DNA of 63,273 nucleotides, the filler included. It is 4 parts of 4 records of this genome, joined end to end, with 100 filler letters (N's around TTAATTAATTAA, not from the genome) between each part and the next. Parts side by side here need not be neighbours in the genome. Positions count along the whole stretch, not along the records: positions 18,810 to 28,217 come from SRR31156797_2022; 3 more parts are not named here. One strand, written 5' to 3'. The translations under genes and the position numbers were made by a program. The notes below the pieces were generated by a model. That model saw only the letters and a list, made by a program, of their open reading frames with translations. It searched no databases and had not been told where the DNA came from. Shown in pieces: positions 4,683-29,113 of the stretch (the first letter of the stretch is position 1; each line of letters begins with the position of its first letter).

Positions 4683-5861
4683 ATGAAGAAGTACAATTTT
4701 GATGAAATTATCCCGCGCGAAAACACCGATTGTGTAAAATATGATATCCGTAAAATGTTTTTTGGTACCGATGATGTGTTGCCCATGTGGGTGGCCGACA
4801 TGGATTTCCGCACACCGGATTTTATCATCGGAGCTATTAAAAACCGGCTGGAACACGAAATCCTGGGTTATACTTTTCGGGGGAAATCTTTCACTAAATC
4901 GATAATAAAATGGAATAAAAAGCGCCATGGATGGGAGCTTAAAGCGGGATGGATAAGCTATAGCCCGGGAGTGGTTCCTGCTGTGAACATGCTGGTGCTT
5001 GCACTTTCCGGACCAGGCGACAAAATCATTGTGCAGCCACCGGTATATTTCCCCTTTTTCAGTGCAGTTAAAAACAATGACCGCACCCTTGTTGAGAACC
5101 CGTTGAAACTTGAAAAAGGCAGATTAAACATGGATTTTGATGATCTGGCCAAAAAAGCCAAAGATGCCAAAATGTTGATCATCAGCCACCCGCACAACCC
5201 GGGGGGAAGCGTCTGGACAAAAGGCGAACTCACCAAAATGGCTGAAATTTGCCTTGAAAATGATGTGATCATGGTTTCGGACGAGATACACTCCGACCTG
5301 ATTTTCCCGCAGTATAAGCACATCCCGCTGGCGTCCCTCAGCGAAGAAATCGCGCAACAAACGATTACCTGCAACGCGCCTTCAAAAACCTTTAATCTGG
5401 CCGGGCTGGCAACTTCATACCTGGTAATTTCAAACAACGATTACTTAGAGAAATACAACGCCATGCTCAACGACAAGATCCATGTAAATATGGGGAATCT
5501 ATTTGGTCCGGTTGCTTTGCAGGCTGCTTACGAGCATGGTGAAGACTGGCTGAACCAGTTGCTGGATTATGTTTGGAAAAATGTAGAATATGTGACTGAT
5601 TTTTGCGAACGGAAAATCCCGCAAATCAAAGTGATCAAACCCGAATCTACCTACATGATCTGGCTCGATTGCCGGGAGCTCAATCTAAAAGGTGATACAC
5701 TGAAGGATTTCTTCATAAAAAAAGCCGGGCTGGGATTTAACGATGGGCAGGTATTTGGTACAGGGGGCGAAGGTTTCATGCGAATGAATGTGGCATGTCC
5801 GCGATCTACTGTTGAAACGGCAATGAAGAAACTCAAAAACGCAATTCAGGGGTTGGTCTGA
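4683..5861 (+). CDS. PLP-dependent C-S lyase, MalY/PatB family
   Basis: LPMWVADMDF, HPHNPGG, SDEIHSDL, APSKTFNLAGL. Confidence 0.92.
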   Translation: MKKYNFDEIIPRENTDCVKYDIRKMFFGTDDVLPMWVADMDFRTPDFIIGAIKNRLEHEILGYTFRGKSFTKSIIKWNKKRHGWELKAGWISYSPGVVPAVNMLVLALSGPGDKIIVQPPVYFPFFSAVKNNDRTLVENPLKLEKGRLNMDFDDLAKKAKDAKMLIISHPHNPGGSVWTKGELTKMAEICLENDVIMVSDEIHSDLIFPQYKHIPLASLSEEIAQQTITCNAPSKTFNLAGLATSYLVISNNDYLEKYNAMLNDKIHVNMGNLFGPVALQAAYEHGEDWLNQLLDYVWKNVEYVTDFCERKIPQIKVIKPESTYMIWLDCRELNLKGDTLKDFFIKKAGLGFNDGQVFGTGGEGFMRMNVACPRSTVETAMKKLKNAIQGLV

Positions 5862-5935
5862 AATTTAGATGGGATTTAAAATTACACATTTATATATGCG
5901 CTTCGGGATTAAACATTTTGTTTTAAACATAATGT

Positions 5936-13735: not shown

Positions 13736-14554
13736 ATGAACCAGTTTCTCGAAAAGATAATATTGAATAAAAAGCGGGAAATCACCGAACGGAAGTCGTT
13801 GTACCCTGTAAAACTGCTCGAAAAAAGTGTGTATTTCCCGACCTCGCCGGTTTCGATGAAATCATATCTTACCCGTAAGGATAAACTTGGCGTGATTGCT
13901 GAGTTTAAGCGAAAATCGCCGTCAAAAGGGTGGATCAATCAGTTTGCCAAACCCGGCGAAATCACCCTGGGTTACATGCAATCCGGGGCTTCGGCTTTGT
14001 CGGTGCTTACGGACAAATTTTTTTTTGATGGTAATTTTTCTGATCTTACTGCTGCCCGGGCAGAGAATTACTGCCCCATTTTACAAAAGGATTTTATTCT
14101 GGATGAGTACCAGATTATAGAAGCGAAATCCATTGGCGCTGATTGCATATTGCTGATTGCGGCGGTTCTATCGAAAGATGAAATTAAGCATCTTGCAGAG
14201 TTTGCTCACAGTTTAAAACTGGAAGTGCTGGTAGAAATTCACCAGGAAGCGGAGCTGGAAAAAATTCCTGATGAAGTACAAATTGTGGGCATTAACAATC
14301 GTAATCTGGAAACCTTTGAGGTGGATCTGGAAAATTCGGTGAGATTATTAAAACAACTTCCGGCAGAAAAAGTGAAAGTTGCCGAGAGTGGTATCCACAG
14401 CGCCGAGGTGGCTTCTGATTTAATGGGTTTGGGTTTCGACGGATTATTGATCGGAGAGCAATTTATGAACACCATCGATCCGGTGGCTGCCTGTCAGAGG
14501 TTTATCCGAAGTCTTGAAAAAATAGAGGCAAAGCGCGATGCGCGTAGAGCTTAG
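13736..14554 (+). CDS. trpC: Indole-3-glycerol phosphate synthase
   Basis: IAEFKRKSPSKG, LSVLTD, GINNRNL, VAESGI. Confidence 0.97.
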   Translation: MNQFLEKIILNKKREITERKSLYPVKLLEKSVYFPTSPVSMKSYLTRKDKLGVIAEFKRKSPSKGWINQFAKPGEITLGYMQSGASALSVLTDKFFFDGNFSDLTAARAENYCPILQKDFILDEYQIIEAKSIGADCILLIAAVLSKDEIKHLAEFAHSLKLEVLVEIHQEAELEKIPDEVQIVGINNRNLETFEVDLENSVRLLKQLPAEKVKVAESGIHSAEVASDLMGLGFDGLLIGEQFMNTIDPVAACQRFIRSLEKIEAKRDARRA

Positions 14555-14632
14555 CGCATAGCGAAAAATAAATTATTCGTCCTGCGATTTTCATTCAAAT
14601 AACCCAATAACGAATAACTATTAACGAATAAC
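14528..14632 (+). repeat. Short heptamer-type repeats at the trpC end and in the trpC-trpF spacer
   Basis: AGCGCGATGCGCGTAGAGCTTAGCGCATAGCG and AATAACG-AATAACT-ATTAACG-AATAACT (7-nt period). Confidence 0.55.
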
Positions 14633-14641
14633 TTTCCACCA

Positions 14642-15265
14642 ATGAAACTAAAAGTCTGCGGGATGCGGGATTCTGAAAATCTCAGGGAATTGGTTGACCA
14701 GGTCAATCCGGATTTTGTGGGATTCATTTTTCATCCGGGCTCTCCCAGATATTTTCTGGACGGGCCGGAAGATATCCCCATTGTTCTTTCTCCTGAAAAA
14801 CGAACCGGTGTTTTTGTCGACAGCAATGTTGATGAAGTGATCGGACTGGCAGAGATGTTCAACATCAAAAACATCCAACTGCATGGCATTGAATCACCGG
14901 AGTTTTGCCAAATGATCAGGGATAAAGGGTTTACCGTCATCAAAGCTTTTGGGATCAAATCTGAAGATGATTTTCAAAAACTTGAGGAATATAAAGAGGT
15001 TTGTGATTTCTATTTGTTTGATACAAAAACCGCCAAGCACGGAGGTAGCGGAAAGAAATTCAACTGGCAAATGCTGGACAAAGTTGCAGTTTCAAAATCT
15101 TATTTTCTCAGCGGCGGGATAGATGTGGATGATGTAGATGACATCCGCAAGTTGAAACATCAGCCCTTTGCCATTGATATCAACAGCCGTTTTGAAATTG
15201 AGCCTGCTTTAAAAGACATCGAAATAATCAAAAACTTTAAAAAACGACTATTCAACCATGCATAA
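14642..15265 (+). CDS. trpF: Phosphoribosylanthranilate isomerase
   Basis: [31 protein letters not shown]. Confidence 0.96.
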
Positions 15266-16448
15266 AACACTCACAACCACGGATGAACGTGGCTACTATG
15301 GAAACTATGGAGGGGCTTTCATTCCCGAACTGCTCTACCCCAACATCGAGGAACTTCGGGATAACTATTTAAAAATAATGGCCTCCGACGCATTTAAATC
15401 TGAATTTGATCAACTCCTAAAGGATTATGTGGGACGGCCAAGTCCGCTGTATTTTGCAAAGCGGCTTTCCGAAAAATACCACACCAAAATTTACCTCAAG
15501 CGCGAAGACCTGAACCATACCGGCGCACACAAGATCAACAATACCGTTGGCCAGGTGCTGATGGCTGAAAAGCTGGGTAAAAAGCGCATCATCGCCGAAA
15601 CGGGCGCCGGACAGCACGGTGTGGCCACAGCCACGGTTTGCGCATTGCGGAACCTGGAATGCATCGTTTATATGGGGGCTCTGGATGTGGCTCGCCAGGC
15701 ACCGAATGTTTCTCGCATGAAAATGCTGGGTGCTAAAGTGGTGCCGGTTCATTCAGGTAATAAAACCCTGAAAGATGCCACCAACGAGGCTATTCGTGAC
15801 TGGATTGCCCATCCTGATGACACCTTTTATATTTTAGGATCTGTTGTTGGGCCCCACCCGTACCCGGATATGGTCACACGGTTTCAATCGGTTATCAGTG
15901 ACGAAATTAAAGATCAGCTCAACCAGCAAATCGGCAGGGAAAACCCGGATTACGTGATTGCCTGCGTAGGTGGAGGCAGTAATGCTGCAGGAGCATTTTA
16001 TCATTTTCTCGATAATCCCAATGTAAAACTAATTGCAACTGAAGCTGCCGGTCTGGGTGTGGATTCCGGTGAAACCGCCGCAACAATTGCCATTGGCACA
16101 CCCGGCATTTTGCATGGCAGTAAAACACTGTTGATGCAAACACAGGATGGACAGATCACGGAGCCATACTCCATTTCGGCAGGTCTTGATTATCCGGGGA
16201 TTGGGCCGATGTACGCACACCTGAAAGAGATTGGCAGAGCACAATTCCTGAGTGTTTCCGATGATCAGGCTTTGGCAGCAACACTCATATTAACCCGAAC
16301 CGAAGGTATAATCCCGGCTTTGGAAACCGCCCATGCTTTGGCAGTTTTCGACATAAAGAAATTTGAAAAAGATGACGTGGTTGTGATTAATCTTTCAGGC
16401 CGCGGAGATAAGGATATGTCAACGTTTACGGAGGCTTTTAAACTGTAA
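15258..16448 (+). CDS. trpB: Tryptophan synthase beta chain
   Basis: [46 protein letters not shown]. Confidence 0.98.
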
Positions 16449-16469
16449 GGATCAAAAACTTGAATTCAT

Positions 16470-16573
16470 GTAAAGACGCACGGCTGTGCATCTCAATCTG
16501 GTGAAGACACAGAAAAGACGCAATGTAAAGACGCACGGCCCCCGAAAGTTCGGGGCAGGCTGTGCGTCTCAAC
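16470..16573 (+). repeat. Two REP-like palindromes (GTAAAGACGCACGGC/TGTGCRTCTCAA); the second carries a 21-nt hairpin insert
   Basis: Copies at 16470-16496 and 16525-16573; insert CCCCGAAAGTTCGGGGCAGGC at 16540-16560. Confidence 0.8.
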
Positions 16574-16593
16574 GAGATATAAAAATAACTTAA

Positions 16594-17355
16594 ATGAATA
16601 AACTCACCGAAATATTTCAAATCAAAAAAGACCTTTTGGCACTATACTTCACAGCGGGATTTCCGGAGATTGAAGATTTTCCAAAAGTCATTGCCGGTTT
16701 TGAGGCCAGCAACGCAGATATCCTGGAACTCGGCATCCCGTTTTCTGATCCCATGGCTGATGGGCCCGTCATCCAGAGAAGTGGCCAGCGGGCATTGGAG
16801 AATGGCATCACCGTGGAAAAGCTTTTCGAATTACTTGAAAAAATTCCACCAGGTAAGCCTAAAGTTATCATGACCTACATAAATCCTGTTTTTAAATTTG
16901 GGATTGAAAAATTTTGTGAAAAAGCAGCAAAATCCAGTATCGATGGAATGATTATTCCCGATCTGCCTTTTGAAGAATTTGAAGCGGAATACGCTGAAAC
17001 ATTCAGGAAAAATAAATTACATTACATCCCCCTCATCACCGACAAAACCAATGATGAACGGTTGAAAATGGCCACCCGAATAGGATCAGGATTTATTTAC
17101 CTGGCGTCGGCACATATTATTACCGGCAGCAAAACAGGGCTGGATTTCTCCCCAGGTTTCAAAAACAAAATCACAGAACTACAAAAAAGCCTTCCGGTGA
17201 TGATTGGCTTTGGCATCCGGAATCATGACCAATACCAGGCTGCCTCAAACATCAGCAATGGCGCCATAATAGGAACGGCGTTTATCCAGGCATTGGAAAA
17301 AACAGATGACGTTTACCAGGAAACCATCGATTTTGTGAAGGAGATTAAACGATAA
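16594..17355 (+). CDS. trpA: Tryptophan synthase alpha chain
   Basis: ELGIPFSDPMADGPVIQ, IIPDLP, IGFGI. Confidence 0.97.
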   Translation: MNKLTEIFQIKKDLLALYFTAGFPEIEDFPKVIAGFEASNADILELGIPFSDPMADGPVIQRSGQRALENGITVEKLFELLEKIPPGKPKVIMTYINPVFKFGIEKFCEKAAKSSIDGMIIPDLPFEEFEAEYAETFRKNKLHYIPLITDKTNDERLKMATRIGSGFIYLASAHIITGSKTGLDFSPGFKNKITELQKSLPVMIGFGIRNHDQYQAASNISNGAIIGTAFIQALEKTDDVYQETIDFVKEIKR

Positions 17356-17365
17356 ATGGTGTTGT

Positions 17366-17450
17366 GTAGTTGATACGCACGGCCGTGCGTATCAACTGCG
17401 GTGCGTATCAACGGCGGTGCGTATCAGTGGCGGTGCGTATCAGCGGCCGC
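17366..17450 (+). repeat. REP-like palindrome followed by three tandem 16-nt half-site copies
   Basis: Perfect palindrome GTTGATACGCACGG-CCGTGCGTATCAAC (17369-17396), then GCGGTGCGTATCA repeated three times at 16-nt period. Confidence 0.8.
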
Positions 17451-17499
17451 TTCAAGGCCGCGCGCCACAACGAAATAAAAAACAATTAAGAATCAAATC

Positions 17500-18522
17500 A
17501 TGATAATTCAACTTGAACAAAGCATAAATCAAAATCAAAAATCGGATATTACAGGAAAAATTGCTGATTTTGGATTTACCTTGAAAAACATCAAAACCCA
17601 AAACGCCGACTACCTTATTGCGATTGGGAAACCTGAATTCGACATCCGAACCATTGGAAATATGGCTGGCGTGGCAGATGTGTTTGCTGTGAACGACACA
17701 CATGAACTGGTTTCGAATAAATGGAAGATTTCCCCAACCATTATTGACCTGGGTGATGGCGAAAGCATTGGCGGCAGCGACTTGTGCGTGATGGCCGGGC
17801 CCTGCTCCATCGAAAATGAAGCGCAGGTAAAAGATATGGCCGAATTCCTTTCGAAACACAAAATTGGCGTGATGCGCGGGGGGGTGTTCAAACCGCGTAG
17901 TTCTCCGTATGCCTTCCGCGGTGTGGGTATTGAAGGACTGAAATATTTTTCAGCGATTTGCAAAGAAAATGGTCTTAAAATCATTTCCGAGGTGATGCAC
18001 GACAACCAGATTGAGCCCATGTGTGAGTATGTGGACATTTTTCAGGTAGGGGCGCGAAATTCACAAAACTTTAACCTACTTGATGCCCTTGGAAAAGTGG
18101 GCAAACCAGTCATGCTCAAACGGGGTATCTCCGGCACACTGGATGAGTTGCTGTATTCGGCGGAGTACATATTTTCGGGTGGAAATGAAAAGATCATCCT
18201 TTGCGAACGTGGCATCCGAACTTTCGAAAAAGAATATCGCAACACACTTGATTTGAATGCAGTCCCTACGTTAAAAGCGAAAACCCATTTGCCGGTTATC
18301 GTGGATCCATCGCACGGAACAGGAAAACGTCATTTGGTAGAAACCATGGCACTTGCCGGCATTATGAGCGGTGCGGACGGCATTATGGTGGAGATTCACA
18401 AAACTCCGGATAAAGCAATGTCTGATGGAGCACAGAGCCTCACCCTGCAGCAATCTGAAACCCTGTTTGATAAAATGAAAGCTACCTGGGATTTCAGAAG
18501 GAAATTGAATAATGGTATTTAG
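17500..18522 (+). CDS. aroF: DAHP synthase type I-beta with N-terminal regulatory domain
   Basis: AGPCSIE, RGGVFKPRSSPY, QVGARNSQNF, ILCERGIRTFE, VDPSHGTG. Confidence 0.9.
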   Translation: MIIQLEQSINQNQKSDITGKIADFGFTLKNIKTQNADYLIAIGKPEFDIRTIGNMAGVADVFAVNDTHELVSNKWKISPTIIDLGDGESIGGSDLCVMAGPCSIENEAQVKDMAEFLSKHKIGVMRGGVFKPRSSPYAFRGVGIEGLKYFSAICKENGLKIISEVMHDNQIEPMCEYVDIFQVGARNSQNFNLLDALGKVGKPVMLKRGISGTLDELLYSAEYIFSGGNEKIILCERGIRTFEKEYRNTLDLNAVPTLKAKTHLPVIVDPSHGTGKRHLVETMALAGIMSGADGIMVEIHKTPDKAMSDGAQSLTLQQSETLFDKMKATWDFRRKLNNGI

Positions 18523-18709: not shown

Positions 18710-18809
18710 NNNNNNNNNNNNNNNNNNNNNNNNNNNNNNNNNNNNNNNNNNNNTTAATTAATTAANNNNNNNNNNNNNNNNNNNNNNNNNNNNNNNNNNN
18801 NNNNNNNNN
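18710..18809. other. Artificial contig spacer
   Basis: N44-TTAATTAATTAA-N44 (stops in all frames); composition changes across it. Confidence 0.98.
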
Positions 18810-18817
18810 AAAGGGAT

Positions 18818-18856
18818 ATCCCCGGATTGATTTTTTTCAATCCGGGGATTTTTTTT
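18818..18856 (+). terminator. Intrinsic terminator upstream of the TonB receptor
   Basis: 13-bp stem ATCCCCGGATTGA/TCAATCCGGGGAT followed by a T tract. Confidence 0.8.
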
Positions 18857-18961
18857 GGCGGGCCGTATCATACTCCAACGGGTCGGGAAGGGAATGAAAC
18901 CAACTCTCATTACCCTCACCCGGCGGCAATTCAAAAGGTGAAAGGGGAGGAAAGGCGGACA

Positions 18962-20872
18962 ATGAAAAACGGCATGCTAAAGGGAAGTTTGTTCAGGATT
19001 GTTTTGGGATTGGTGCTGACACTGGTTTGGAGCACCTCAAACGCTGAAGAAAAGAAAACCACGGAAAACACGACCCTCGATACGGTCACGGTTACGGCGG
19101 AAGCCTTTCCCGTGGAAGAAAAGGATAGCACGCGATTCGTAACGGTGGTCACTTCCGAAGAGTTGAAAGACACGGGAGGCAACAACCTGATGGATGCCCT
19201 CAGGCGCATCGGCGGCTTGGGTTACAAGGCCACTGCGCCTTTGGGAATGAGCAACGGCGGGATGAACAGCCAGCTCATTATCAGAGGTATTCGTGGAGGA
19301 GAATTGGTGATGGTCAACGGTTTGCCCATACAGGGGGCCGGCGGCCGCGGATATGATCTCAGCAACATCCCAATCGATCAAATCGAGCGTGTGGAGATTC
19401 TTAAGGGCGCCGCATCCACTCTTTACGGCTCGGACGCCATGACCGGCGTAATCAACATCATCACCAAAAAGCCTACCGACGAAACCCAAGTCAAGGCATC
19501 CGTGGAATTCGGCAATAGATCCTATATGAACCACGGCATTTCCGCGTCTCTTCCAAAAGTGATCTTAGGGGTGAACTATAATCATTTGGGGGCCCTTGAC
19601 CGGATATCCGAAAGCTTTAACAAAAATTATCGTTGGGATTTGGGGTCCACCAATGAATTCGCCATGAATTTGAATGCCAACCCTTTCGAGAATTTCTATA
19701 TCGACTATCTGGGCTCCTTTTACGAGACGAAATTCAAAAAAGTGTACGACTCCGCAAAGCCCTACCAGGGCACGGACCAGAAGAAATATTGCAATTTCCT
19801 CGATCTGCGCTACGATACACGGGATTTCAAGATCAAGACATTCGGTACTTTTGAAGAAGTGGTGAGAGATGAGTATACCTCTTCTGATCCGAAAAGCAAA
19901 GATCAAAACTACAACTTCGGACTGGATGGAAGTTACCGTTTTAACCTGCCCATATTTGAATTGAGCGTCGGTGGGGAATGGGTCTATCGGGGCGCCGATT
20001 ACAGTAAAAAATGGGGAGAACATCATCGCAACGACTATGCCCTTTTCGCCCAATTGAAGAAAGATTTCTTCGACCGGCTGATCATCACGGTGGGCGCCCG
20101 GGAGCAGCTCATCGACGCCGAATCGGGATCCGAAAACCACAACAAGTTCCTTCCCAGCTTCGGGGCCAACTACAAGGCCACCGACTATCTGAATCTCTTT
20201 GCCAATGCCAGCAAGGCATTTCGGATGCCCACCTTTAACGATCTCTATTATGAAAGCAGGACTATAACCCCCAACCCGAACCTGGATCCGGAAGAGGGGT
20301 GGACCTACGGTGCCGGCGTTAAGCTGGATACCACGCTGGTTTCCCTCAGACTTGCCGGGTTTTACATGACCTACAAAGACAAAATCGAAATCGACCGTTC
20401 CCAAGGATATCCCCTCAAGCGTTTCAATGCCGGCGATTTCAATACCAAGGGGGTTGAATGGAACCTGGGCCTTTATCCCTTTGCCAATCAGGCCGGGTTT
20501 GTGAATAACATCGCGTTTCAGGCCGCCGGGTACTGGGCTGATCCCGAGGGAAAGGACCCGAACGGGGAGGAATACCAGCCCGGCCCGAAATTTCAAACCA
20601 GTCTGGCGGTCACCTACCTGACCCAACCCCTGACCCTGGACCTGAACTGCCAGGTTCTCGCGGACAGGGAAAGAAACTTGGACAGCTATGCGGTGCTCAA
20701 CTTCTACAGCAAGTACAGGTTGTGGAAAGGGTATCTGACCTTTGGAGTGGACAATATCTTCAATCAGCAGGACATCCAGATTTACGGCAATATGGAACCG
20801 GATGCCGGCAACCAATATGTCTATTACGAGGTCGGCCGGATGGTTAAGATCGGCTATGAGATTGTGTTCTAG
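18962..20872 (+). CDS. TonB-dependent receptor (BtuB/HmuR-like)
   Basis: Start after GGGGAGGA; signal peptide; TonB box LDTVTVTA; plug motif IERVEILKGAASTLYGSDAMTGVINIIT; C-terminal F. Confidence 0.92.
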   Translation: MKNGMLKGSLFRIVLGLVLTLVWSTSNAEEKKTTENTTLDTVTVTAEAFPVEEKDSTRFVTVVTSEELKDTGGNNLMDALRRIGGLGYKATAPLGMSNGGMNSQLIIRGIRGGELVMVNGLPIQGAGGRGYDLSNIPIDQIERVEILKGAASTLYGSDAMTGVINIITKKPTDETQVKASVEFGNRSYMNHGISASLPKVILGVNYNHLGALDRISESFNKNYRWDLGSTNEFAMNLNANPFENFYIDYLGSFYETKFKKVYDSAKPYQGTDQKKYCNFLDLRYDTRDFKIKTFGTFEEVVRDEYTSSDPKSKDQNYNFGLDGSYRFNLPIFELSVGGEWVYRGADYSKKWGEHHRNDYALFAQLKKDFFDRLIITVGAREQLIDAESGSENHNKFLPSFGANYKATDYLNLFANASKAFRMPTFNDLYYESRTITPNPNLDPEEGWTYGAGVKLDTTLVSLRLAGFYMTYKDKIEIDRSQGYPLKRFNAGDFNTKGVEWNLGLYPFANQAGFVNNIAFQAAGYWADPEGKDPNGEEYQPGPKFQTSLAVTYLTQPLTLDLNCQVLADRERNLDSYAVLNFYSKYRLWKGYLTFGVDNIFNQQDIQIYGNMEPDAGNQYVYYEVGRMVKIGYEIVF

Positions 20873-20879
20873 AGGCGAG

Positions 20880-20903
20880 CCGGGTCCCGATTCAGGGACC
20901 CGG
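20880..20903 (+). other. GC-rich stem-loop after the receptor gene (no U tract)
   Basis: CCGGGTCCC-gattca-GGGACCCGG. Confidence 0.5.
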
Positions 20904-21060
20904 TCTCATGGCATTCTCCCATGGGAATCTAAAATGAAAGTCAAAAAGCGCAATGGGGAGAAAGGTGGAAGGATGAGGGATTTAACCTGGGGTCGGCCCG
21001 TCAGCTCAAGGATGGATGCGTCATATCCATACCCCTTACAAAGTCCAAAGGGGATACCTA

Positions 21061-24000
21061 ATGAGATCAAGTAGCTTACTGTTAGCCTGTTTTATCTGTG
21101 TCCTGTTTCCCTCTATGGCGTCCGCCGGCCCCGACAGGAAAAAGGTCGTCATGATCGTCAGTGCAAGGGACAGCCTGACGGTGGCCCGAGCATTTAGAGA
21201 CCTGAAAAAGGATCCCGGAATCTCAAAACGGTATCTGTTTGAATTCTTTACCGATCGGGAAATAAGAAACAACCGGGTTAAAAGGGACCATATCAGCGAC
21301 GCCCATATCATCCTGGCCGATTTTATGAAAAGGGACTTTGACGGTTTTCTTGCGGAGAACCTGACGGACGGCCCGGGAGGCCATAAACCGAAGGTGTACA
21401 GTCTTCGTTGCGTCTATCTGGCTGAAAACCTGAAAAAGATCGGTTTTAATCCTGATGTGAAAACGGAAAAGTACTATTCCCCCGCAACCGTCGACAACAT
21501 AAAAAATCTGATTTTTTTAACCCTGTCCGAGGACGGGGAAAGGGTGAAATATGCCCCTCCCTTTGTCCTGCCCCAATCGGGGATATTTCATCCCGATTCT
21601 TCCAAGATCTTCCCTACTTTTGACGCGTACCTTGCCTGGTACCAAAAAAAGGGAAAACTCAAGAAAGACGGGTTCTGGGTGGGCTTGCACACCTTCCACA
21701 GTTCCGCCTTGAAGGAAACCGGCAAAATAGAAGCGTATATGATTGAGGCTTTGGAGCGTGAAGGGATCAACGTTCTCCCCGCCTTCGGCAGGCCCCCTTA
21801 TTATAAGTCCTTGGAGACGTTTTTTCTGGATGAAAAGGGAAGCCCCCGCGTTCAAGCGATGATCGCCTTTTCTTTTCGGTTCCTGCGGGGGTTCCCCGAA
21901 AAAACCGAAGAAATCCTTCATCGGATCAATGCCCCGGTGTTCATGCCCCTTACGGCCCACGCCGTCACCATCAACCAGTGGCGGAAGTCGGACGAGGGGA
22001 TTTCACCCATGCGCGTGGCGTGGCAGGTGTGCATCCCGGAGCAAAACGGCGCCATTGAACCCTCCATGGTGGGCGGAAAAACCGCCGCCAGGCTCAAGGG
22101 GATGACGGACGTGGTTTACGATACCGTTCCCATGCCCGAAAATATCGATTTTCTGATTCGGAGAATAAAGGGGTGGCATAAGCTTCAGGCAATGGCGAAC
22201 GGGGAGAAGAAAGTCGCGATCCTCTACTGGAACCACCCTCCGGGGAAACAGAACATCGGCGGCAGTTATATGAATTGCTTCCGGTCCATCTCCGAAATCC
22301 TGTCGGGGCTCAAGCAAAACGGCTACAAAATGGACGGCTCGTTGCCCACGGAAGAGGACGTTAAGGAAAGAATTCTCTTGACCGGCAGAAATGTGGGCTC
22401 CTGGGCCCCCGGAGAACTGGAGAAACTCATATCCCAAGGGGGCGTGATCCGCATACCCGTATCCAGGTATAAGGAATGGTTTAGGGAGCTGAATTCCGAT
22501 TTTCAACAGGCGGTGCTCAGCCAGTGGGGGAGGCCCGAGGATTCGGACATCATGACGAAAAACGGCGAGATGATTATCCCCGCGGTTCCCCTGGGCAACA
22601 TCATACTCCTCCCCCAACCGAGTCGGGGATTCGGTGAAGACCCGGAAAAGCTGTACCATGATCCGAAACTCTATCCCCATCACCAGTATATTGCCTTCTA
22701 TCTCTGGCTCAAGAAAGAATTCCGGGTCGATGCCATCATCAGCCTGGGCAAGCACGGCACCCATGAATGGCTGCCGGGAAATCAGATCGGTCTTTCCCTT
22801 TCGGATCCCCCCGAGGTATTGATCCAGGATATTCCCAACATCTACCCCTATATCGTCGATAACGTGGGTGAAGGCACCCAGGCAAAACGGAGGGGCAGAG
22901 GCGTCATCATCGACCATCTGATCCCGCCTTTGAAAAAAGGGGGATCCTACATGGAATATCGGAAGTTGACCGCCTTGATCGATGAATACCATGACGCCCA
23001 GAAGAAGGAGGCGGGGCTGGCGGAAGAAAAGCTGAAAAGGGTTCGGAAGCTCATTTACGAGCTCGGCCTGGATCAGGACCTGGAGCTGAAGGAACTGGAT
23101 GACCATGCCGTGGAGGAGGTCGAACATTACATCCTTGAGCTGCAGGAAAGCCTGATTCCATACGGGCTCCACACCTTCGGCATTTCCCCCCAGGGCGACG
23201 CCCTCCATGATCTGACCGAAGCGATCTGTGCGGCCAGCCCGGAGATCAGGAAGGAAGAGATGAAATCGGGGATCGAGGCGTGCGGCAAGCAGGAGATGGC
23301 AAGCCTGTTGAAGGCCCTTGACGGCGGGTTCATCCCGGCCGGTGAGGGAAACGATCCCCTTCGAAATCCGGCGGCGGTGCCCACGGGGAGAAACTTCTAT
23401 GCTTTCAATGTGGACAAGGTTCCCTCAAAAGAGGCATGGACCCTCGGAAAAAAACTGGCGGATGATATGATTAATGAATACCGGAAAAAGCATAATGATT
23501 TCCCTGAAAAGATGGGAATTATTGTCTGGAGCACGGAACTGCAGAGAAATGAAGGTGCCAGTATCGGTGCAGTCCTGAGCCTTCTGGGCATAACACCGGT
23601 ATGGGACAAAAAAGATCATGTGGTGGGTCTTGAACCGATACCCGGAACCATCCTCAAAAGGCCCCGGATCGACGTACTGGTTCAGTCGTCCGGGCTTTTC
23701 AGGGACGGATACGCGAAGATCATGAAGCTCATGGACAGGGCCGTACGGATGGCCGGTCCGTTGCGGGATGTGGAAAATTTCGTGGCGGTGCATAACAAGA
23801 AGATCGCCAAGGCCCTCGTGGAAAAGGGATATTCCGAGGAAGATGCCCAGGACCTGGGCCAGGCCAGAATCTTCGGACCCATGCCCGGAGCATACTCCCA
23901 TGCGCTCCAGGAACTGATACCCAACAGCGGCGTATGGGAGGATGATCGGGAGATCGCCGATGTGTTTATCCACCACTACTCTTTCGCCTACGGGGAGAGG

Positions 24001-24969
24001 GTCTGGGGAAAACCGATGAAGAGCGCCTACAAAAACAACCTGAAAGGTGTCAACGTCACCATGCATACCCGTTCGTCAAACGTGTATAACATGCTGGACA
24101 ATGACGATATGTTCGCATTTTTGGGCGGATTGTCCCTGGCGGTTAAAAGTCAGAGCGGGGAATATCCGGATGTGCTGGTGGCCGATTTAAAAGATGGGAA
24201 AAACGTCAACCTGGAAGATCTTCCCAAGGCCATCGGAAAGGCATTGAGGACCCGATATCTGAACCCCAAATGGATTGAGGGGATGAAGAAGGAGGGGTTT
24301 TCAGGGGCCAAGGCCATGGACGAATTCGTGGAAAACTTGTGGGGTTTTCAAGTCACCAACCCCTATGCGGTGGATGGGACCCAGTGGGAACAGATCCATG
24401 AGGTTTACGTGGAAGACAAATACGGCCTGGATATCAAAGAATTCTTTGACAAGAACAACCCCTGGGCCCAGCAGTCCATGGCGGCACGCATGCTGGAGGT
24501 GGACCGCAAGAAATACTGGAAGGCCCCTGAAGAGATAAAGAAAAAACTGGCCAAAACCTATGCCGTAAATGTCATTGAAAAGGGTGTTGCCTGTTGCGAA
24601 CATACCTGCAATAACCCCATGCTCCAGCAGTTCGTGACCAACATCATTTCATTGCACGGCCTGCTCACCCCCCGGCAGCTGGACCAGTTCAAAATGGTCA
24701 TCGCCAAAGCAACCGGCGGGACCCAGGCGGAAAATGAGGCAAAGAGCGAAAAGGCCAGGGAGAGTTTGAAAAAGACCATCGAAGAGATTCAAAAGGAAGA
24801 GACTGTAAAGGCTAAAACGGAAGGGAAGAAGATTGAGGGTTTTGAGATGGTGGATGAAAAACCGGAGGATACGAAGGTAACCGCTTCCGGCTCCGAATGG
24901 ATGGTAATGGTCATTGCGTTAGGACTTTTAGCCTTGTTGTTTGCGGGGTGGAGGCGCAAGAAGGTCTGA
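21061..24969 (+). CDS. CobN/Mg-chelatase H family protein with signal peptide and C-terminal membrane anchor (HmuS/BtuS-like)
   Basis: HHQYIAFYLWL, LGKHGTHEWLPG, PNIYPYIVDNVGEGTQAKRRG, PTGRNFY, RPRIDV, RTRYLNPKWIEGM; signal MRSSSLLLACFICVLFPSMASA; CCEHTC motif; TM plus WRRKKV tail. Confidence 0.93.
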   Translation: MRSSSLLLACFICVLFPSMASAGPDRKKVVMIVSARDSLTVARAFRDLKKDPGISKRYLFEFFTDREIRNNRVKRDHISDAHIILADFMKRDFDGFLAENLTDGPGGHKPKVYSLRCVYLAENLKKIGFNPDVKTEKYYSPATVDNIKNLIFLTLSEDGERVKYAPPFVLPQSGIFHPDSSKIFPTFDAYLAWYQKKGKLKKDGFWVGLHTFHSSALKETGKIEAYMIEALEREGINVLPAFGRPPYYKSLETFFLDEKGSPRVQAMIAFSFRFLRGFPEKTEEILHRINAPVFMPLTAHAVTINQWRKSDEGISPMRVAWQVCIPEQNGAIEPSMVGGKTAARLKGMTDVVYDTVPMPENIDFLIRRIKGWHKLQAMANGEKKVAILYWNHPPGKQNIGGSYMNCFRSISEILSGLKQNGYKMDGSLPTEEDVKERILLTGRNVGSWAPGELEKLISQGGVIRIPVSRYKEWFRELNSDFQQAVLSQWGRPEDSDIMTKNGEMIIPAVPLGNIILLPQPSRGFGEDPEKLYHDPKLYPHHQYIAFYLWLKKEFRVDAIISLGKHGTHEWLPGNQIGLSLSDPPEVLIQDIPNIYPYIVDNVGEGTQAKRRGRGVIIDHLIPPLKKGGSYMEYRKLTALIDEYHDAQKKEAGLAEEKLKRVRKLIYELGLDQDLELKELDDHAVEEVEHYILELQESLIPYGLHTFGISPQGDALHDLTEAICAASPEIRKEEMKSGIEACGKQEMASLLKALDGGFIPAGEGNDPLRNPAAVPTGRNFYAFNVDKVPSKEAWTLGKKLADDMINEYRKKHNDFPEKMGIIVWSTELQRNEGASIGAVLSLLGITPVWDKKDHVVGLEPIPGTILKRPRIDVLVQSSGLFRDGYAKIMKLMDRAVRMAGPLRDVENFVAVHNKKIAKALVEKGYSEEDAQDLGQARIFGPMPGAYSHALQELIPNSGVWEDDREIADVFIHHYSFAYGERVWGKPMKSAYKNNLKGVNVTMHTRSSNVYNMLDNDDMFAFLGGLSLAVKSQSGEYPDVLVADLKDGKNVNLEDLPKAIGKALRTRYLNPKWIEGMKKEGFSGAKAMDEFVENLWGFQVTNPYAVDGTQWEQIHEVYVEDKYGLDIKEFFDKNNPWAQQSMAARMLEVDRKKYWKAPEEIKKKLAKTYAVNVIEKGVACCEHTCNNPMLQQFVTNIISLHGLLTPRQLDQFKMVIAKATGGTQAENEAKSEKARESLKKTIEEIQKEETVKAKTEGKKIEGFEMVDEKPEDTKVTASGSEWMVMVIALGLLALLFAGWRRKKV

Positions 24970-25105
24970 TGATAGGATCTTTCCATGAAAATTTTCGGAA
25001 TCCTGAAAGAATCATATCATTTGGAGAAGCATCATAAGGTCTCGAATATTATTCAGCCGCCTATTGAGGGCGAAGGCAACAAAACCACAAGGGAGGCGAC
25101 CATCG

Positions 25106-25864
25106 ATGATAAACAGGTTTTGGGCGGCCGGTATCGGCATCGCAGTTTTTCTTTCCTTTCCGTTTATCGGTGAGAGCAGGGATTTCTCCCGGGAAAATTG
25201 TGGAAGTCCTCATGTCAGGCAGGTGGGGATGTATCTCTATCGGTGCAACAAGGTAATGGGATACGATTGTTTTGACGCAGATGGCCGTCTGTCAAAAAAT
25301 GTGGTTATCAAACGGGATGAATCCGGCAATATGATCGAAAGGTCAAAATATAACGGATACAACAAATTGCTTGCACGTTTTGTCTATGAACTGGATGACA
25401 AGGGGTTGATGCACCGGAAAACCCGTTATGGACCGGATGGAACCATAACCTGGTATGCGCGATATGAGTTTAACAAAGAGGGACTGCCGGTAGAACAGAA
25501 AAGATATTCGCCCAAGGGTATGTTCACCAAATCGGCTCGTTACTATTATGATTACGTTAATGAACGGATTCGAAAAGATATGTTTGACGCGACGGGCCGA
25601 TTGACCAAAACATGTATTTACATTTTTGATTCGAATCACCGCAGAATAGGTGATTATGTCCTATCAGCGGACGGGCGGATCAAAAGGCATACGAAGTATG
25701 TTTATAATGCATCCGATAATATCGAGCGTATTGAGAACATGGATGGATCCCTATCCCTGCAGGGAAGGACCGACATCATTTATGACAAAATGGGGAATCG
25801 CATGGAAAAAAAGCGTTTTGACGGAAAAGGCGCTTTGAAATCAATAACGAGATATCAATACTGA
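25106..25864 (+). CDS. Exported YD/RHS-repeat-like protein
   Basis: GGGAGG RBS, signal-like N-terminus, about eight ~24-aa repeats of YxxDGxL..Y.YD..G type. Confidence 0.7.
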   Translation: MINRFWAAGIGIAVFLSFPFIGESRDFSRENCGSPHVRQVGMYLYRCNKVMGYDCFDADGRLSKNVVIKRDESGNMIERSKYNGYNKLLARFVYELDDKGLMHRKTRYGPDGTITWYARYEFNKEGLPVEQKRYSPKGMFTKSARYYYDYVNERIRKDMFDATGRLTKTCIYIFDSNHRRIGDYVLSADGRIKRHTKYVYNASDNIERIENMDGSLSLQGRTDIIYDKMGNRMEKKRFDGKGALKSITRYQY

Positions 25865-25973
25865 TGCCGGCTATGCCCACAACAAAATTGGACAATGATT
25901 TCCTCATAGAAGAAGTAGATCGTGAGGAAATCGAAAAAATAGAACACTATTGTGGAGGAAGGGGTAAATAACG

Positions 25974-26726
25974 ATGCTAAGACAACTCTGGGTAACGGGC
26001 GTCCTGGTGGCTTTTTCCGTTTTTGGGATTAAGGTGGGGTTGGGGCTGGGTGCGCAGATCTACAACAAAGCCGTCTCAATGGGCAAAAGAATCCTCATTA
26101 TGGGCGGGAGCCTTTTTGTTTATCTGATCCTTTTTTTCTGCCTCTTTTACGTGATTACCCATTTTAATCTGTTGAATTATCTGGATCAGTTCGTGAACGT
26201 GCTGCAATACGGTATGCTGCTGCACCTGGCGGTGGCTGCAGGCCTTCTCATATGGGGCGCAAAGCTGATCCTTGAAAAGCCGGGAAAGCAAGAAAGCCTC
26301 CCTTTCCGCAAAAGCCTGCTCCTTATTCTGCCGTGCCCCGTGTGCGCCACGGTAATCCTGCTGAACCTGACCTTGGCCTACTCACTTTTTGACTTGTCAC
26401 CCTTTTTAACCACCTTAACCCTCTTCGGTATTTTCAGCGGCATCATTTTTTTTGCAACGGCTGTCCTTTTTCCCTTCCGCCATAGAATCGGTTCCGGAAA
26501 CTCATTTTTGGGTCAGTCCATGACGCTTGTTGCACTCTATTTTCTGTTTGTCGTGATTATCGCACCCATTTACCCCGAGATAAAGGCCGCCTTTGCCATG
26601 GCCGTTTCCAACAGCCCCGTCAGCCGGATGGATCACACCAATACGGCCATATTGGTGGGGGTTGTATTGATACTCGCATGTACCGGATTCGTAAAAGTCT
26701 ATTTTGCCAAAGGAGGCACCAAGTGA
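25974..26726 (+). CDS. DUF2162-type multi-TM putative transporter (HmuT-like)
   Basis: VFGIKVGLGLG and LILPCPVCATVI motifs, about seven TM helices. Confidence 0.8.
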   Translation: MLRQLWVTGVLVAFSVFGIKVGLGLGAQIYNKAVSMGKRILIMGGSLFVYLILFFCLFYVITHFNLLNYLDQFVNVLQYGMLLHLAVAAGLLIWGAKLILEKPGKQESLPFRKSLLLILPCPVCATVILLNLTLAYSLFDLSPFLTTLTLFGIFSGIIFFATAVLFPFRHRIGSGNSFLGQSMTLVALYFLFVVIIAPIYPEIKAAFAMAVSNSPVSRMDHTNTAILVGVVLILACTGFVKVYFAKGGTK

Positions 26727-27361
26727 ATATCTTTCCCGCATTTCAAACCATCCTGTATACGGTTTCAACGGCCATGCTCTACCCCGTGGTGATACTCCTC
26801 ATCTTTCTCTGTCTCTGGATCATCGTCTATGCGGGAGGCTTTATCGGGGAGGCGGTTAAAAGGAGACGTTTTCGGAGCGATAGGCACCTGGCGGATTTCT
26901 TGGAGGACATTAAAAAAGCGGAGCGGCTGCCCCCTAAGGTGGCTGAAAACTTACCTGTCGGTGTTGCGAATTATGCGAATGAACTTAATGACATTGTCCA
27001 TGGGAGCAAACTGTTCCGTGATGAGAAAGTGGAAGATCTGAATCAACGCAAGGAACATGCCCTTGCCAGGGAGGTGGACAAAATTCGTCTCATTGTGCGG
27101 ATCGGTCCCAGTCTGGGGCTTATGGGAACATTGATTCCCATGGGCACCGGCTTGGCGGGTCTCACCCAGGGGGACATGGCGCAGCTTTCATCCAGCCTCA
27201 TTCTGGCCTTTACCACCACGGTGGTGGGGTTGGCGCTGGGCATCACGGCCCATTTTTTCTCCGTTGCCAAAGAGCGTTGGGTTACGGAAGACATGCGTCA
27301 TGTCAACCTGATCACGGAAGCCATGACGCAGGGCGTTGATGCTTCAGGGGCGGCAGGATGA
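26723..27361 (+). CDS. MotA/TolQ/ExbB proton channel family protein (HmuU-like)
   Basis: RIGPSLGLMGTLIPMG, LILAFTTTVVGL; GTG start overlapping the upstream stop, with AGGAGG RBS. Confidence 0.9.
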   Translation: MNIFPAFQTILYTVSTAMLYPVVILLIFLCLWIIVYAGGFIGEAVKRRRFRSDRHLADFLEDIKKAERLPPKVAENLPVGVANYANELNDIVHGSKLFRDEKVEDLNQRKEHALAREVDKIRLIVRIGPSLGLMGTLIPMGTGLAGLTQGDMAQLSSSLILAFTTTVVGLALGITAHFFSVAKERWVTEDMRHVNLITEAMTQGVDASGAAG

Positions 27362-27729
27362 AATACATAAAAAAAAGCCGGCAGGCGCATCTGGGAAAAG
27401 CAAAAAGGGAAGAGCCCCTAAACGGGGTGGCAAACCTTTTCGACGTGGCACTTGTCTTTATCGTGGCATTGCTCCTTTCCCTTATGTCCACCTATCAGGT
27501 CCTCGATTTCTTTAATCCCGAAAGTGAGATTACCATCATGAAAAAGGTGAAAGATGAATGGCGGATCATCACTAAAAAGGGAAAGGAAGTGAAGGTAAAA
27601 AAGGTAACGGACAGAAAGGTGGGGGGGGATGAAGGCCTTAAACTGGGCACCGCCTATCAGCTGAAAGACGGACGCGTCATATATATCCCCGATGGAATGA
27701 GTGAAAGCGAGCTCAATGAGATCGAGTAG
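27358..27729 (+). CDS. DUF2149 protein (HmuV-like, ExbD analogue)
   Basis: EPLNGVANLFDVALVFIVAL and GTAYQLKDGRVIYIP motifs. Confidence 0.88.
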   Translation: MKYIKKSRQAHLGKAKREEPLNGVANLFDVALVFIVALLLSLMSTYQVLDFFNPESEITIMKKVKDEWRIITKKGKEVKVKKVTDRKVGGDEGLKLGTAYQLKDGRVIYIPDGMSESELNEIE

Positions 27730-27841
27730 ATATTTTGTAACATGTTTGATTCTTTTCTTGCTCCCGTTGGTGGCATTCGCGGAAGAGGATCTGAATAAAG
27801 CGGGAACAAATGACGGCCGACAAATGAGGAATAACCGTTAA
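27716..27841 (+). pseudogene. 41-codon ORF resembling the 5' end of the CobN-like gene
   Basis: MRSSRYFVTCLILFLLPLVAFAEEDLNK aligns with MRSSSLLLACFICVLFPSMASAGPDRKK; both begin ATGAGATCRAGTAG. Confidence 0.5.
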
Positions 27842-27944
27842 AGCCCGGAGGTTGAGGCAGGTCATTGACCACACGGAAAGTACAGCCAACAATGGAAGAT
27901 GGTGTTGGCGCCAATTCAATACTTGGCGGTAAGGGAGGTGAATA

Positions 27945-28217
27945 ATGAGAGCAATCATCATCCTGGGGCACGGCAGCCGGGTACCGGAGGCGGGCAAGGA
28001 TATGCAAAAAGTGGCCACCTTGTTGAAGGAAAACCATGAACTCGAAATGGTGGAGGTTTGTCAGATGTCCCGGCTCGGACCCCATTACCCGGAAACACTT
28101 GACAAGTGTGTGGCAAATGGGGCAACAGAGGTTATTGTTATCCCGTATTTTTTAAACAACGGATTGCACATCCGTCTGGATATTCCCGAAATGATGAAAG
28201 AAGGGGCCGAAAAATAT
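27945..28217 (+). CDS. cbiX: CbiX/SirB-family class II chelatase (truncated by contig end)
   Basis: IILGHGSR and VIPYFLNNGLHIRLDIP; GGAGGTGA RBS. Confidence 0.88.
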
Positions 28218-28317
28218 NNNNNNNNNNNNNNNNNNNNNNNNNNNNNNNNNNNNNNNNNNNNTTAATTAATTAANNNNNNNNNNNNNNNNNNNNNNNNNNN
28301 NNNNNNNNNNNNNNNNN
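28218..28317. other. Artificial contig spacer
   Basis: N44-TTAATTAATTAA-N44. Confidence 0.98.
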
Positions 28318-28318
28318 A

Positions 28319-29113
28319 GCTAAAATTACCTTATACTGGGGAGAAGAGACCAATGTATCTCCTAATACAGGGGATCATGGAGAGTTACGTGTAGCATACC
28401 TTGATGGCAGTAATATATGGCAGGATTTAGGAAATAGTGCATATGCAGGCTCAGCTACAAGCGGCTGGTTAACTTCATCCACAGCAGCATCATTCAGTAC
28501 TGTGGAATTTACCATTGCCTCTTCAACCACAGACAATCCACTTCCTGTTACATTAGTTGATTTTACTGCCAAAGTGGAAAATGAAAACCAGGTGGCGCTA
28601 AGCTGGAAAACAACATCAGAAATAGATAACGATTATTTCATTGTTGAGCGAAGTAGAGATGGGGTTGTTTTCGAAGAGGTTAACCGCGTTAATGGCAACG
28701 GAACCACTACTGAATTGAGTAACTATCAAACTACCGATTATGACCCATACACAGGTATTTCATACTATCGCTTACGTCAGGTGGATTATAATGGCCAGGA
28801 GGAAATATTCCCAATGGTTGTGATTGAAATAAAAAGCATGTTTACTGAAGAACCTCGATTAAATATTCACCCTAACCCATACCGTTCCGGTGATGTGGTT
28901 GTAGACATTGGTGGCTTCAATGAGCAAGAAGAAGCCCTGGTAATGATTTCGGACATCTCAGGTAGCCCAATTTGGCAAGGCCGTATGTATCCAACAAGAG
29001 CTGAGATGTCAAATATTGTAAGTGATCAGCTTGAAGCTGCACAATCGGGATTTTACCTTGTTATTGTAGTAAGCAGCGATAGAAAAATCTCTGCCCGAAT
29101 AATTAAAGAGTAA
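28319..29113 (+). CDS. C-terminal part of a T9SS cargo protein (type A sorting domain), 5'-truncated
   Basis: Open frame from the contig edge; PLPVTLVDF, LSWKTTSEIDNDYFIVERSRDG, YYRLRQVDYNG, IHPNP, GFYLV..IIKE. Confidence 0.88.
   Translation, partial: AKITLYWGEETNVSPNTGDHGELRVAYLDGSNIWQDLGNSAYAGSATSGWLTSSTAASFSTVEFTIASSTTDNPLPVTLVDFTAKVENENQVALSWKTTSEIDNDYFIVERSRDGVVFEEVNRVNGNGTTTELSNYQTTDYDPYTGISYYRLRQVDYNGQEEIFPMVVIEIKSMFTEEPRLNIHPNPYRSGDVVVDIGGFNEQEEALVMISDISGSPIWQGRMYPTRAEMSNIVSDQLEAAQSGFYLVIVVSSDRKISARIIKE

Follow-up and report, generated by a model that had tools for sequence, protein, structure and literature searches.

A probable BtuS-type, B12-linked module around an exported CobN-like protein on a Desulfobacterota-like contig

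What is the function of a CobN-family protein that is exported and membrane-anchored, and that is encoded beside a TonB-dependent receptor and a putative proton-channel pair? The question is raised by one of the contigs of the window, as we call the whole stretch of 63,273 nucleotides that was analysed. Three linkers (N44-TTAATTAATTAA-N44; positions 18710-18809, 28218-28317 and 57995-58094) divide the window into four contigs with GC contents of 0.42, 0.505, 0.327 and 0.536, in window order, and the bin behind it may be a mixture of organisms. The locus in question is the entire second contig (18810-28217; 9,408 bases), which has seven genes, all on the + strand. A preliminary description had called it an hmuRSTUV-like locus for tetrapyrrole uptake and (de)chelation. 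The observation itself is confirmed and this interpretation is borne out in part: from sequence comparison, the locus is probably a BtuS-type module of Desulfobacterota with an exported CobN-like protein distinct from HmuS and a link to B12 and cobalt. That it constitutes a specific route for cobalt harvest is a more tentative proposal, to which we give rather less than an even chance. The genes listed in the preliminary description (TonB receptor, CobN family, DUF2162, MotA/ExbB, DUF2149 and cbiX, co-oriented) are all present on the + strand with matches to Pfam; the list had omitted the seventh gene, which is described further below.

The CobN-like protein is encoded by an open reading frame at 21016-24969 (+ strand) with a likely start at 21061, resulting in a protein of 1302 amino acids; its match to PF02514 has 1062 bits. 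The N-terminus, read by eye, has the sequence MRSSS, a hydrophobic core and ASA followed by G after the cleavage point, which is a Sec-type signal by the -3/-1 rule, and hydropathy identifies a hydrophobic helix at the C-terminus, followed by RRKK. Because of the -3/-1 and the positive-inside rules, the bulk of the protein is predicted to be periplasmic and tail-anchored, in agreement with the signal peptide and C-terminal trans-membrane anchor that had been proposed. The protein stays below the cut-offs of all nine NCBIfam models for CobN/BchH (best score 920 bits, cut-off 1619). The best match by sequence in the PDB is HmuS (9d26; 508 bits), and the CobN structures have 478 and 470 bits. A search of the full library found 5,214 relatives, and each of the best 150 representatives scores above the 508 bits of HmuS.

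Phylogenetic trees were constructed with FastTree (157 rows) and with IQ-TREE (LG+G4, SH-aLRT; 44 rows), using proteins from annotated plasmids as anchors: CobN of Azotobacter and Pseudosulfitobacter (both encoded with CobW and, in Azotobacter, also with AAA/VWA partner genes), BchH of Thalassococcus and CobN of Haloferax. In both trees, the cytoplasmic CobN/BchH proteins are outside a clade of 143 (FastTree) or 36 (IQ-TREE) rows with a support of 99, and nearly all proteins of this clade have hydrophobic N- and C-termini. The window protein belongs to a Desulfobacterota clade of 13 rows, nested in a FastTree clade of 41 rows that also includes a protein of Trichlorobacter lovleyi. In both trees, a different starred clade holds HmuS of Porphyromonas macacae, and a third clade of long proteins has Methanosarcinales/ANME-2 names. 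Both trees therefore place the protein in the exported, membrane-anchored branch and not with cytoplasmic CobN/ChlH, as the preliminary description had expected, and the reading of the N-terminus agrees with this.

Related loci (labelled L001 and so on) were collected with a scan of one genome per species, which returned 18 loci. One of these, from a Desulfatiglandales metagenome-assembled genome (MAG), has a second CobN-like copy (L006:11427-15385) that is the nearest to the one of the window; it is split into three frames with a TGA inside and is either a broken gene or the product of an assembly error.

Could the locus be a true hmu-type heme-iron system, with a receptor that imports heme and a CobN-like protein that strips the iron like HmuS? 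The best PDB match, the same topology and the similar gene layout all favour this. HmuS and the window protein are both exported, membrane-anchored proteins of the CobN/ChlH superfamily without AAA+ partner, are in the same exported superclade and share His-538; likewise, both the hmu operon and the window have a TonB-dependent receptor, a MotA/ExbB protein and DUF2149 beside the CobN-like gene. The reference system is hmuYRSTUV of B. thetaiotaomicron (PDB 9d26/9p4s; PMC12583661) and P. gingivalis (PMC13227078). For HmuS, Nath et al. 2025 (PMC12583661) describe a Met-rich insertion of about 120 residues, Met-79 and His-254 as ligands of the site-1 heme, and His-538, which is essential, and His-1209 at the de-chelation site. 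Of these features, His-538 is kept in the window protein (GKHGTHEW, with an extra His), as it is across the superfamily. The position of His-254 (HGR in HmuS), in contrast, reads S-F-R in the window protein and its clade, while His is present in 9 of 11 rows of the HmuS clade. At the position of HmuS-1209, the window clade has Asp and the HmuS clade and BchH have His; the Asp is also found in four rows outside, namely three named canonical CobN proteins and one cytoplasmic paralogue of Desulfobacter. The Met-rich insertion is absent: between the anchor columns, the window protein has 86 residues with 2 Met. The corresponding stretch of P. macacae HmuS is 260 residues long and includes 19 Met, and in nine other rows of the HmuS clade it spans 140-411 residues and includes 4-16 Met; the PDB alignment to 9d26 skips chain residues 689-923. 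A Met is aligned in the column of HmuS Met-79 throughout the window clade, but the head domain aligns poorly and HMMER left it unaligned to 9d26. Furthermore, the N-terminus of the window protein is a cleavable-looking signal peptide, while HmuS has an N-terminal anchor. Thus, the resemblance in layout to hmuRSTUV stands, but orthology to HmuS does not, given the different clade, the missing insertion and the absence of both His-254 and His-1209.

Proteins of the exported clade have a C-terminal extension that is absent from canonical CobN/BchH, with the motif GVACC[E/D]HTCNNP in the window clade and AGCSxFVCxN in the HmuS clade. In the window protein, this extension consists of the CCxHxC motif, a charged linker, IEGFEMV...SGSxW, the trans-membrane helix and RRKK; the tail motif (IEGFEMV...T.SGSxW) before the anchor is conserved well past the needs of a mere anchor.

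The control regions of the related loci also argue against heme. A cobalamin riboswitch (RF00174; 65-113 bits, Rfam gathering score) is present upstream and on the operon strand in 11 of the 12 related loci with upstream DNA (L001, L004, L005, L006, L008, L009, L010, L011, L013/L064, L014 and L044); L015 has no upstream DNA and L002, L003 and L007 were outside the scan. The riboswitches are in tandem in L009 (two, plus one before btuFCD) and in L044 (two), and the Desulfobacter chromosome has a riboswitch before both operons. The hmuS operon of P. macacae, in contrast, has none: the sole riboswitch is 9 kb beyond hmuS, before another receptor. The two archaeal-type loci that were scanned have no cobalamin riboswitch either. 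The preliminary description had noted the missing hmuY together with the upstream cut of the contig; relatives with upstream DNA have a cobalamin riboswitch at this place and no hmuY, and for this reason the system is likely to belong to the B12 regulon rather than to heme-iron uptake. Together with the differences in clade and residues and the distribution of DUF2162 (see below), this makes a heme-iron system very unlikely.

The receptor (18962-20872, + strand; Pfam Plug 2.2e-24, TonB_dep_Rec_b-barrel 4.9e-40) is a TonB-dependent protein of the outer membrane with a signal peptide. Its ATG at 18962 is preceded by a GGAGG-like ribosome site and the reading frame is open from 18827; no NCBIfam equivalog cut-off was reached. 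Over its full length, it shares 51-55% identity with the receptors encoded immediately after cobalamin riboswitches in L004 and L009. At the start of the contig, 46 bases form a strong intrinsic terminator (hairpin feature 18810-18859, + strand; stem 18818-18849, then a T-run). A similar terminator is present in L005, the closest relative (5835-5877, 47 nucleotides after the riboswitch), with 13 of 14 flanking bases identical to the window. On this similarity, a cobalamin riboswitch is probably located off the contig, with the window terminator as its expression platform. The contig of the probable source run stops at the same base as the window contig; in this run, the leader (18810-18896) has a depth of 168 compared to 37 elsewhere (4-5x), and a copy of the leader with 9 differences forms the end of another contig (10,296 bases). 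The assembly break is thus explained by a repeated leader. In a permissive Rfam scan, the region 18810-19100 gave nothing but terminator-like fragments belonging to unrelated families. Three marine/seawater sequencing runs contained only short pieces that are about 90% alike to the locus.

The last gene of the contig is cbiX (27945-28217, + strand; PF01903, 2e-18, 67 bits, cut-off 22), a small class II sirohydrochlorin chelatase. It is truncated at 28217 by the contig end, with 91 codons left (the listed end of the open reading frame, 28265, runs into the linker), so that the C-terminal half is off the contig; there is no signal peptide. The link of the module to CbiX, which the preliminary description had pointed out, recurs in relatives: in 7 of 13 loci, the window included, CbiK/CbiX or B12-synthesis genes are part of the module or adjoin it. 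The window CbiX is 75% identical to the one within the B12 operon of L015, which has the order cbiC, cbiX, cbiD, methyltransferases, cbiG and cbiH. Cytoplasmic CbiK is encoded after the CobN-like gene in L010 and L011 and further along in L004. In two loci, CbiK directly follows the riboswitch and has a clear Sec signal peptide and then GHGH (L001:6405-7304 and L014:617-1501); it is a second exported chelatase-type protein within the same operon. BtuFCD is encoded beside the module in L009 and BtuF-CbiZ fusions in L013 and L006.

Alternatively, the module could handle a different metal or tetrapyrrole, such as nickel or a nickel/iron isobacteriochlorin; CbiX would then be a nickel chelatase. 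The best NCBIfam models for the window CbiX are indeed sirohydrochlorin nickelochelatase and CfbA (71 and 66 bits), and a sister clade is from Methanosarcinales/ANME-2. However, the scores of the nickel/cobalt chelatase models are below their cut-offs (120 for the 71 and 66 bits), and relatives have cobalamin genes as neighbours and a cobalamin riboswitch as control element. We regard this alternative as extremely unlikely.

More weight has to be given to uptake and salvage of corrinoids without any metal chemistry: the receptor would import cobamides or cobinamide, the CobN-like protein would be a periplasmic scaffold for binding, hand-over or remodelling, MotA/DUF2149 would energise the receptor in the manner of ExbB/ExbD and DUF2162 would be the importer of the inner membrane. 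Riboswitch control fits this, as do the BtuFCD and BtuF-CbiZ neighbours. Moreover, Nath et al. (PMC12583661) model HmuU/HmuV as energiser of the receptor HmuR and liken the head and neck domains to periplasmic binding proteins, and Wagner et al. 2012 (PMC3403914) propose transport of B12 or corrinoid precursors for the cluster of Geobacter lovleyi. Arguments against a mere scaffold are the catalytic His-538 and the neighbouring body motifs, which are kept, and arguments against MotA/DUF2149 as receptor energiser come from the distribution of the membrane partners, presented in the following. On balance, we consider salvage without metal chemistry rather improbable.

The three membrane partners are encoded one after the other on the + strand: DUF2162 (25974-26726; Pfam 1.1e-38) is a polytopic membrane protein with about nine helices, the MotA/TolQ/ExbB-family protein (26678-27361; PF01618, 2.1e-10, 40.8 bits, cut-off 22.9) is 86% identical to the one of L006, and DUF2149 (27358-27729; Pfam 5.9e-29) consists of a small periplasmic domain and one N-terminal trans-membrane helix, in which an Asp is invariant (GVANLFDVALVFIV). 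The trio adjoins the CobN-like gene in 12 of 15 loci of the Desulfobacterota type; the contigs of the other three begin within the CobN-like gene. The numbers of DUF2149 genes track the numbers of exported CobN-like genes: the complete Desulfobacter chromosome has three of each, and three DUF2162, D. curvatus has two of each, with one DUF2162, and P. macacae has one DUF2149 and one hmuS.

DUF2162 is not the permease of the Bacteroidota hmu operon, with which it had been equated. It is absent from the two Bacteroidota genomes that were searched and from the B. thetaiotaomicron control, and present in Methanosarcina acetivorans and, weakly, in Methanocaldococcus. The HmuT open reading frame of P. 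macacae has no match to Pfam and none of the conserved DUF2162 residues. These are a PCPxC motif within a membrane helix and a His, common to all 18 aligned DUF2162 sequences; in an alignment of 17 sequences, PCPxC and the His (H84) are invariant, and so is K20. The AlphaFold2 model of DUF2162 has a predicted local distance difference test score (pLDDT) of 73; a Foldseek comparison to the PDB found no match at E <= 0.001, the best being a ZIP transporter (E 0.16, TM-score 0.21). The model of DUF2149 is poor (pLDDT 55).

Do MotA and DUF2149 serve the receptor or the CobN-like protein? On the plasmid of T. lovleyi, a complete ExbB-ExbD-TonB set immediately follows the module, in addition to MotA/DUF2149. 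Furthermore, three metagenome loci (L057-L059) have the trio with CobN-like genes and no receptor gene was seen there; by sequence, these are 41% related to a Methanosarcinales/ANME cluster and only tentatively of this group. The same DUF2162-MotA-DUF2149 trio is present in archaeal-type relatives, for which a similar gene set had been noted previously; it is found with CobN-like genes in an archaeon, and DUF2149 is also present in the Methanosarcina acetivorans control, an organism without outer membrane. The cytoplasmic CobN paralogues have other partners: the Desulfobacter genome has three of these next to each other in one co-directional cluster, with genes for ChlD-/ChlI-like AAA+ proteins directly following one of them and the other two paralogues situated 3-7 kb downstream. 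Together, the separate ExbB-ExbD-TonB set, the loci without receptor and the AAA+ genes beside cytoplasmic paralogues suggest that the MotA/DUF2149 pair serves the CobN-like enzyme and not the receptor alone, although these are associations and not proof. In agreement with the preliminary description, the window contig has no cobS/cobT or chlI/chlD genes. This absence means little for a contig of 9.4 kb, but it is strengthened by the relatives, as none of 53 flanking open reading frames of 12 related loci matches Mg_chelatase or AAA_5; there is one VWA_CoxE match, upstream of the riboswitch of L001.

How do these components compare with systems that have been described? Three precedents are in print. 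Rocha et al. 2019 (PMC6460266), citing Rodionov 2003, present BtuS as a third, B12-regulated type of CobN relative with a predicted function in metalloporphyrin salvage, and they expect it to be periplasmic and anchored. Meslé et al. 2023 (PMC10100974) report hmu-like operons with cobalamin riboswitches in B. fragilis that are probably not for heme. The window protein resembles the BtuS family in being distinct from CobN/ChlH, in its predicted periplasmic, anchored topology, in the company of a TonB receptor and corrinoid genes (cbiX on the contig) and, in relatives, in cobalamin control. The described BtuS cases are from Bacteroidota, and BtuS1 of B. fragilis is not among the rows of our trees. 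As third precedent, Wagner et al. (PMC3403914) describe a CobN gene between TonB-receptor genes, without CobS/CobT, on the plasmid pSZ77/pGLOV01 from Geobacter (Trichlorobacter) lovleyi SZ and state its role as unknown. This protein is 39% identical to the window protein and from the same sub-branch. The gene order is receptor-DUF2162-MotA-DUF2149-CobN-like, while in the window the CobN-like gene precedes the trio. The T. lovleyi cluster has two tandem cobalamin riboswitches upstream and, beyond the window, the ExbB-ExbD-TonB set, a second receptor and a position between two B12 biosynthesis clusters; the window has the repeat-protein gene (see below) and cbiX in addition. The window locus is therefore a further example, from Desulfobacterales and truncated, of a type of module that is already in print (Rodionov 2003 as cited, Wagner 2012, Meslé 2023).

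The hmu operon differs from all this in the hmuY gene, which is absent from the window contig, in its permease (DUF2162 with PCPxC in the window, HmuT in P. macacae) and in its surroundings, as the relatives of the window are under cobalamin riboswitches and among B12 genes. Canonical CobNST/ChlHID share with the window protein the PF02514 body, the catalytic His and, in CobN, the Asp at the position of HmuS-1209; however, they are cytoplasmic and driven by ATP through AAA+ partners encoded nearby, as in Azotobacter and for the Desulfobacter paralogues, in contrast to the exported, anchored protein of the window. The literature searched included no experimental work on the B12-linked branch; sequences of this kind may already have a place in Dataset EV4 and in the supplementary trees for PMC12583661 and PMC6460266. 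Nath et al. note that many clusters of the superfamily, including archaeal ones, cannot be annotated.

From the above, we infer an envelope module, part of the B12 regulon, by which a cobalt tetrapyrrole, or cobalt, is taken up and (de)metalated in the periplasm. Its steps could be as follows. When adenosylcobalamin is scarce, the riboswitch, seen in relatives and presumed for the window, would permit transcription of the operon. The TonB-dependent receptor would import a cobalt-bearing tetrapyrrole, a corrinoid or a cobalt complex to the periplasm. There, the CobN-like protein, tethered by its conserved C-terminal helix and equipped with the catalytic His of the superfamily and a CobN-like Asp, may remove, capture or exchange the metal, by analogy with the reaction of HmuS. 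DUF2162, with its invariant Lys, His and PCPxC in helices, could carry either the soft metal ion that is set free or reducing power through the inner membrane. MotA/ExbB and DUF2149 would be a proton-driven unit dedicated to the enzyme, in place of the AAA+ proteins ChlI/ChlD or CobS/CobT, as the 1:1 co-occurrence suggests. Finally, cytoplasmic CbiX (CbiK in relatives) would insert cobalt into sirohydrochlorin for cobamide synthesis. Energising by a proton channel instead of ATP, as proposed in the preliminary description, is compatible with the data on co-occurrence.

Several observations weigh against this model. No enzyme is known to us that takes the cobalt out of a corrin ring, so that the substrate may be a non-corrinoid or the protein may strip no metal at all. 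HmuS, the only characterised relative, is active in vitro on NADH alone: the reaction from heme to protoporphyrin IX and Fe2+ is described as needing neither ATP nor membrane potential (PMC12583661). DUF2149 is not recognisably related to ExbD, with an hhalign probability of 0.1% and 0 hits in a PDB profile search, and is hence ExbD/TolR-like in architecture only. The T. lovleyi locus ends at a gene for a permease of the energy-coupling factor (ECF) type for metals, indicating that a cobalt importer is already there. With BtuFCD and BtuF-CbiZ as neighbours, salvage of intact corrinoids is favoured over cobalt harvest. A paralogous subclade (L009a, L011, L013b) has Gly instead of Asp at the position of HmuS-1209. 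The upstream DNA of L012 has no riboswitch at the gathering score, and no Rfam family reaches this score in the window, where no riboswitch is seen because the contig ends 152 nucleotides before the receptor ATG. Lastly, cbiX is separated from DUF2149 by a gap of 215 nucleotides with a promoter-like site at 27865-27893; it may have its own promoter and is perhaps outside the operon transcript.

The model can be taken further. Exported CobN-like enzymes could be class I (de)chelatases in which the AAA+ motor is replaced by a proton-driven MotA/ExbB-DUF2149 stator that grips the conserved juxtamembrane tail (IEGFEMV...SGSxW-TM), with the membrane potential driving turnover outside of the cytoplasm, and a relay of thiolates and imidazoles, from CCxHxC of the enzyme to PCPxC/His/Lys of DUF2162, could take the cobalt through the inner membrane to CbiX/CbiK. 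This version is speculative and we consider it doubtful; if true, environmental metallo-tetrapyrroles would be a cobalt source mined by sulfate reducers and methanogen relatives. Residues for mutation are readily available: the Asp of DUF2149, PCPxC of DUF2162, the CCxHxC motif and the tail motif.

Exported CobN-like proteins are a large branch, with at least 143 clusters (at 50% identity) closer in score to the window protein than HmuS, and the one enzyme of this branch that has been studied is that for heme in gut Bacteroidota. Its B12-linked part, common in sulfate reducers and their relatives, may reveal how anaerobes acquire cobalt or recycle corrinoids in sulfidic, cobalt-poor habitats, and perhaps also whether chelatase-type reactions can be powered by a proton-channel pair where ATP is absent.

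From which organism is the locus? The closest relatives of the CobN-like protein are 63-84% identical. Among the 120 relatives listed, 33 have a source name and 12 of these 33 include an organism: nine are Desulfobacterota/Deltaproteobacteria (Desulfobulbaceae, Desulfosarcina ovata, Desulfobacula, Desulfovermiculus and others) and the other three are Candidatus Moduliflexus and two MAGs, named Candidatus Anammoxibacter and 'Proteobacteria bacterium'. The titles of the 18 related loci give the same picture, with 13 Desulfobacterota/Deltaproteobacteria, one plain 'bacterium' and the Desulfatiglandales MAG (L006), of which DUF2162, MotA and DUF2149 are 85-93% identical to the counterparts in the window; the remaining three are two Bacteroidota (31-33% identity) and one 2.5-kb contig in a tiny 'archaeon' bin (L018). 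As both the relatives of the CobN-like protein and the 18-locus scan point there, the assignment to Desulfobacterota made in the preliminary description appears right for the locus contig. Judged by protein identities and locus titles, this contig is Desulfobacterota-like and not of Bacteroidota origin.

The L018 contig (2,530 bases) has a fragment that is 71% identical to the window CobN-like protein and is in a 0.6-Mb bin of an 'uncultured archaeon'; it is probably mis-binned, because DUF2149 is present in 0 of 121 genomes (small genomes) of the phylum of this bin.

A Bacteroidota origin had also been considered on the basis of a gene at 28502-29113 for a protein with a sorting domain of the type IX secretion system (TIGR04183, 27.4 bits, cut-off 23). 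This was dropped, as the gene is on another contig, the third, with a GC content of 0.33.

The seventh gene of the locus, missing from the preliminary description, starts at 25064 or 25106 and ends at 25864 (+ strand) and encodes a small exported repeat protein of 252-266 amino acids without match to Pfam or NCBIfam. The protein is weakly YD/RHS-repeat-like, with atlas feature scores of 0.92 (unnamed clusters) and 0.91 (an RHS_repeat cluster); this recognition is below the usual mark. tblastn found a match in none of the 18 related loci; by this comparison, the gene is an insert between the CobN-like gene and DUF2162 that is peculiar to the window contig.

Genes of the carbon-nitrogen hydrolase (nitrilase) superfamily recur beside modules of this type and beside the cytoplasmic CobN cluster (L006:1907-3166, L063:11811-13388 and L061:14266-15915); the encoded proteins might be amidases that act on corrinoid side chains. 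The cytoplasmic CobN cluster of Desulfobacter (L061-L062; G002:C1:227000-256000) also includes genes for a radical SAM protein, BtuF/FecCD/ABC, CbiZ and a nitrogenase-like oxidoreductase and gives the impression of a tetrapyrrole cluster in its own right, so far unexplained, in an anaerobe. On the first contig of the window (13736-18522), trpC, trpF, trpB, trpA and the gene for a DAHP synthase stand in a row; this is an ordinary tryptophan operon and unrelated to the locus.

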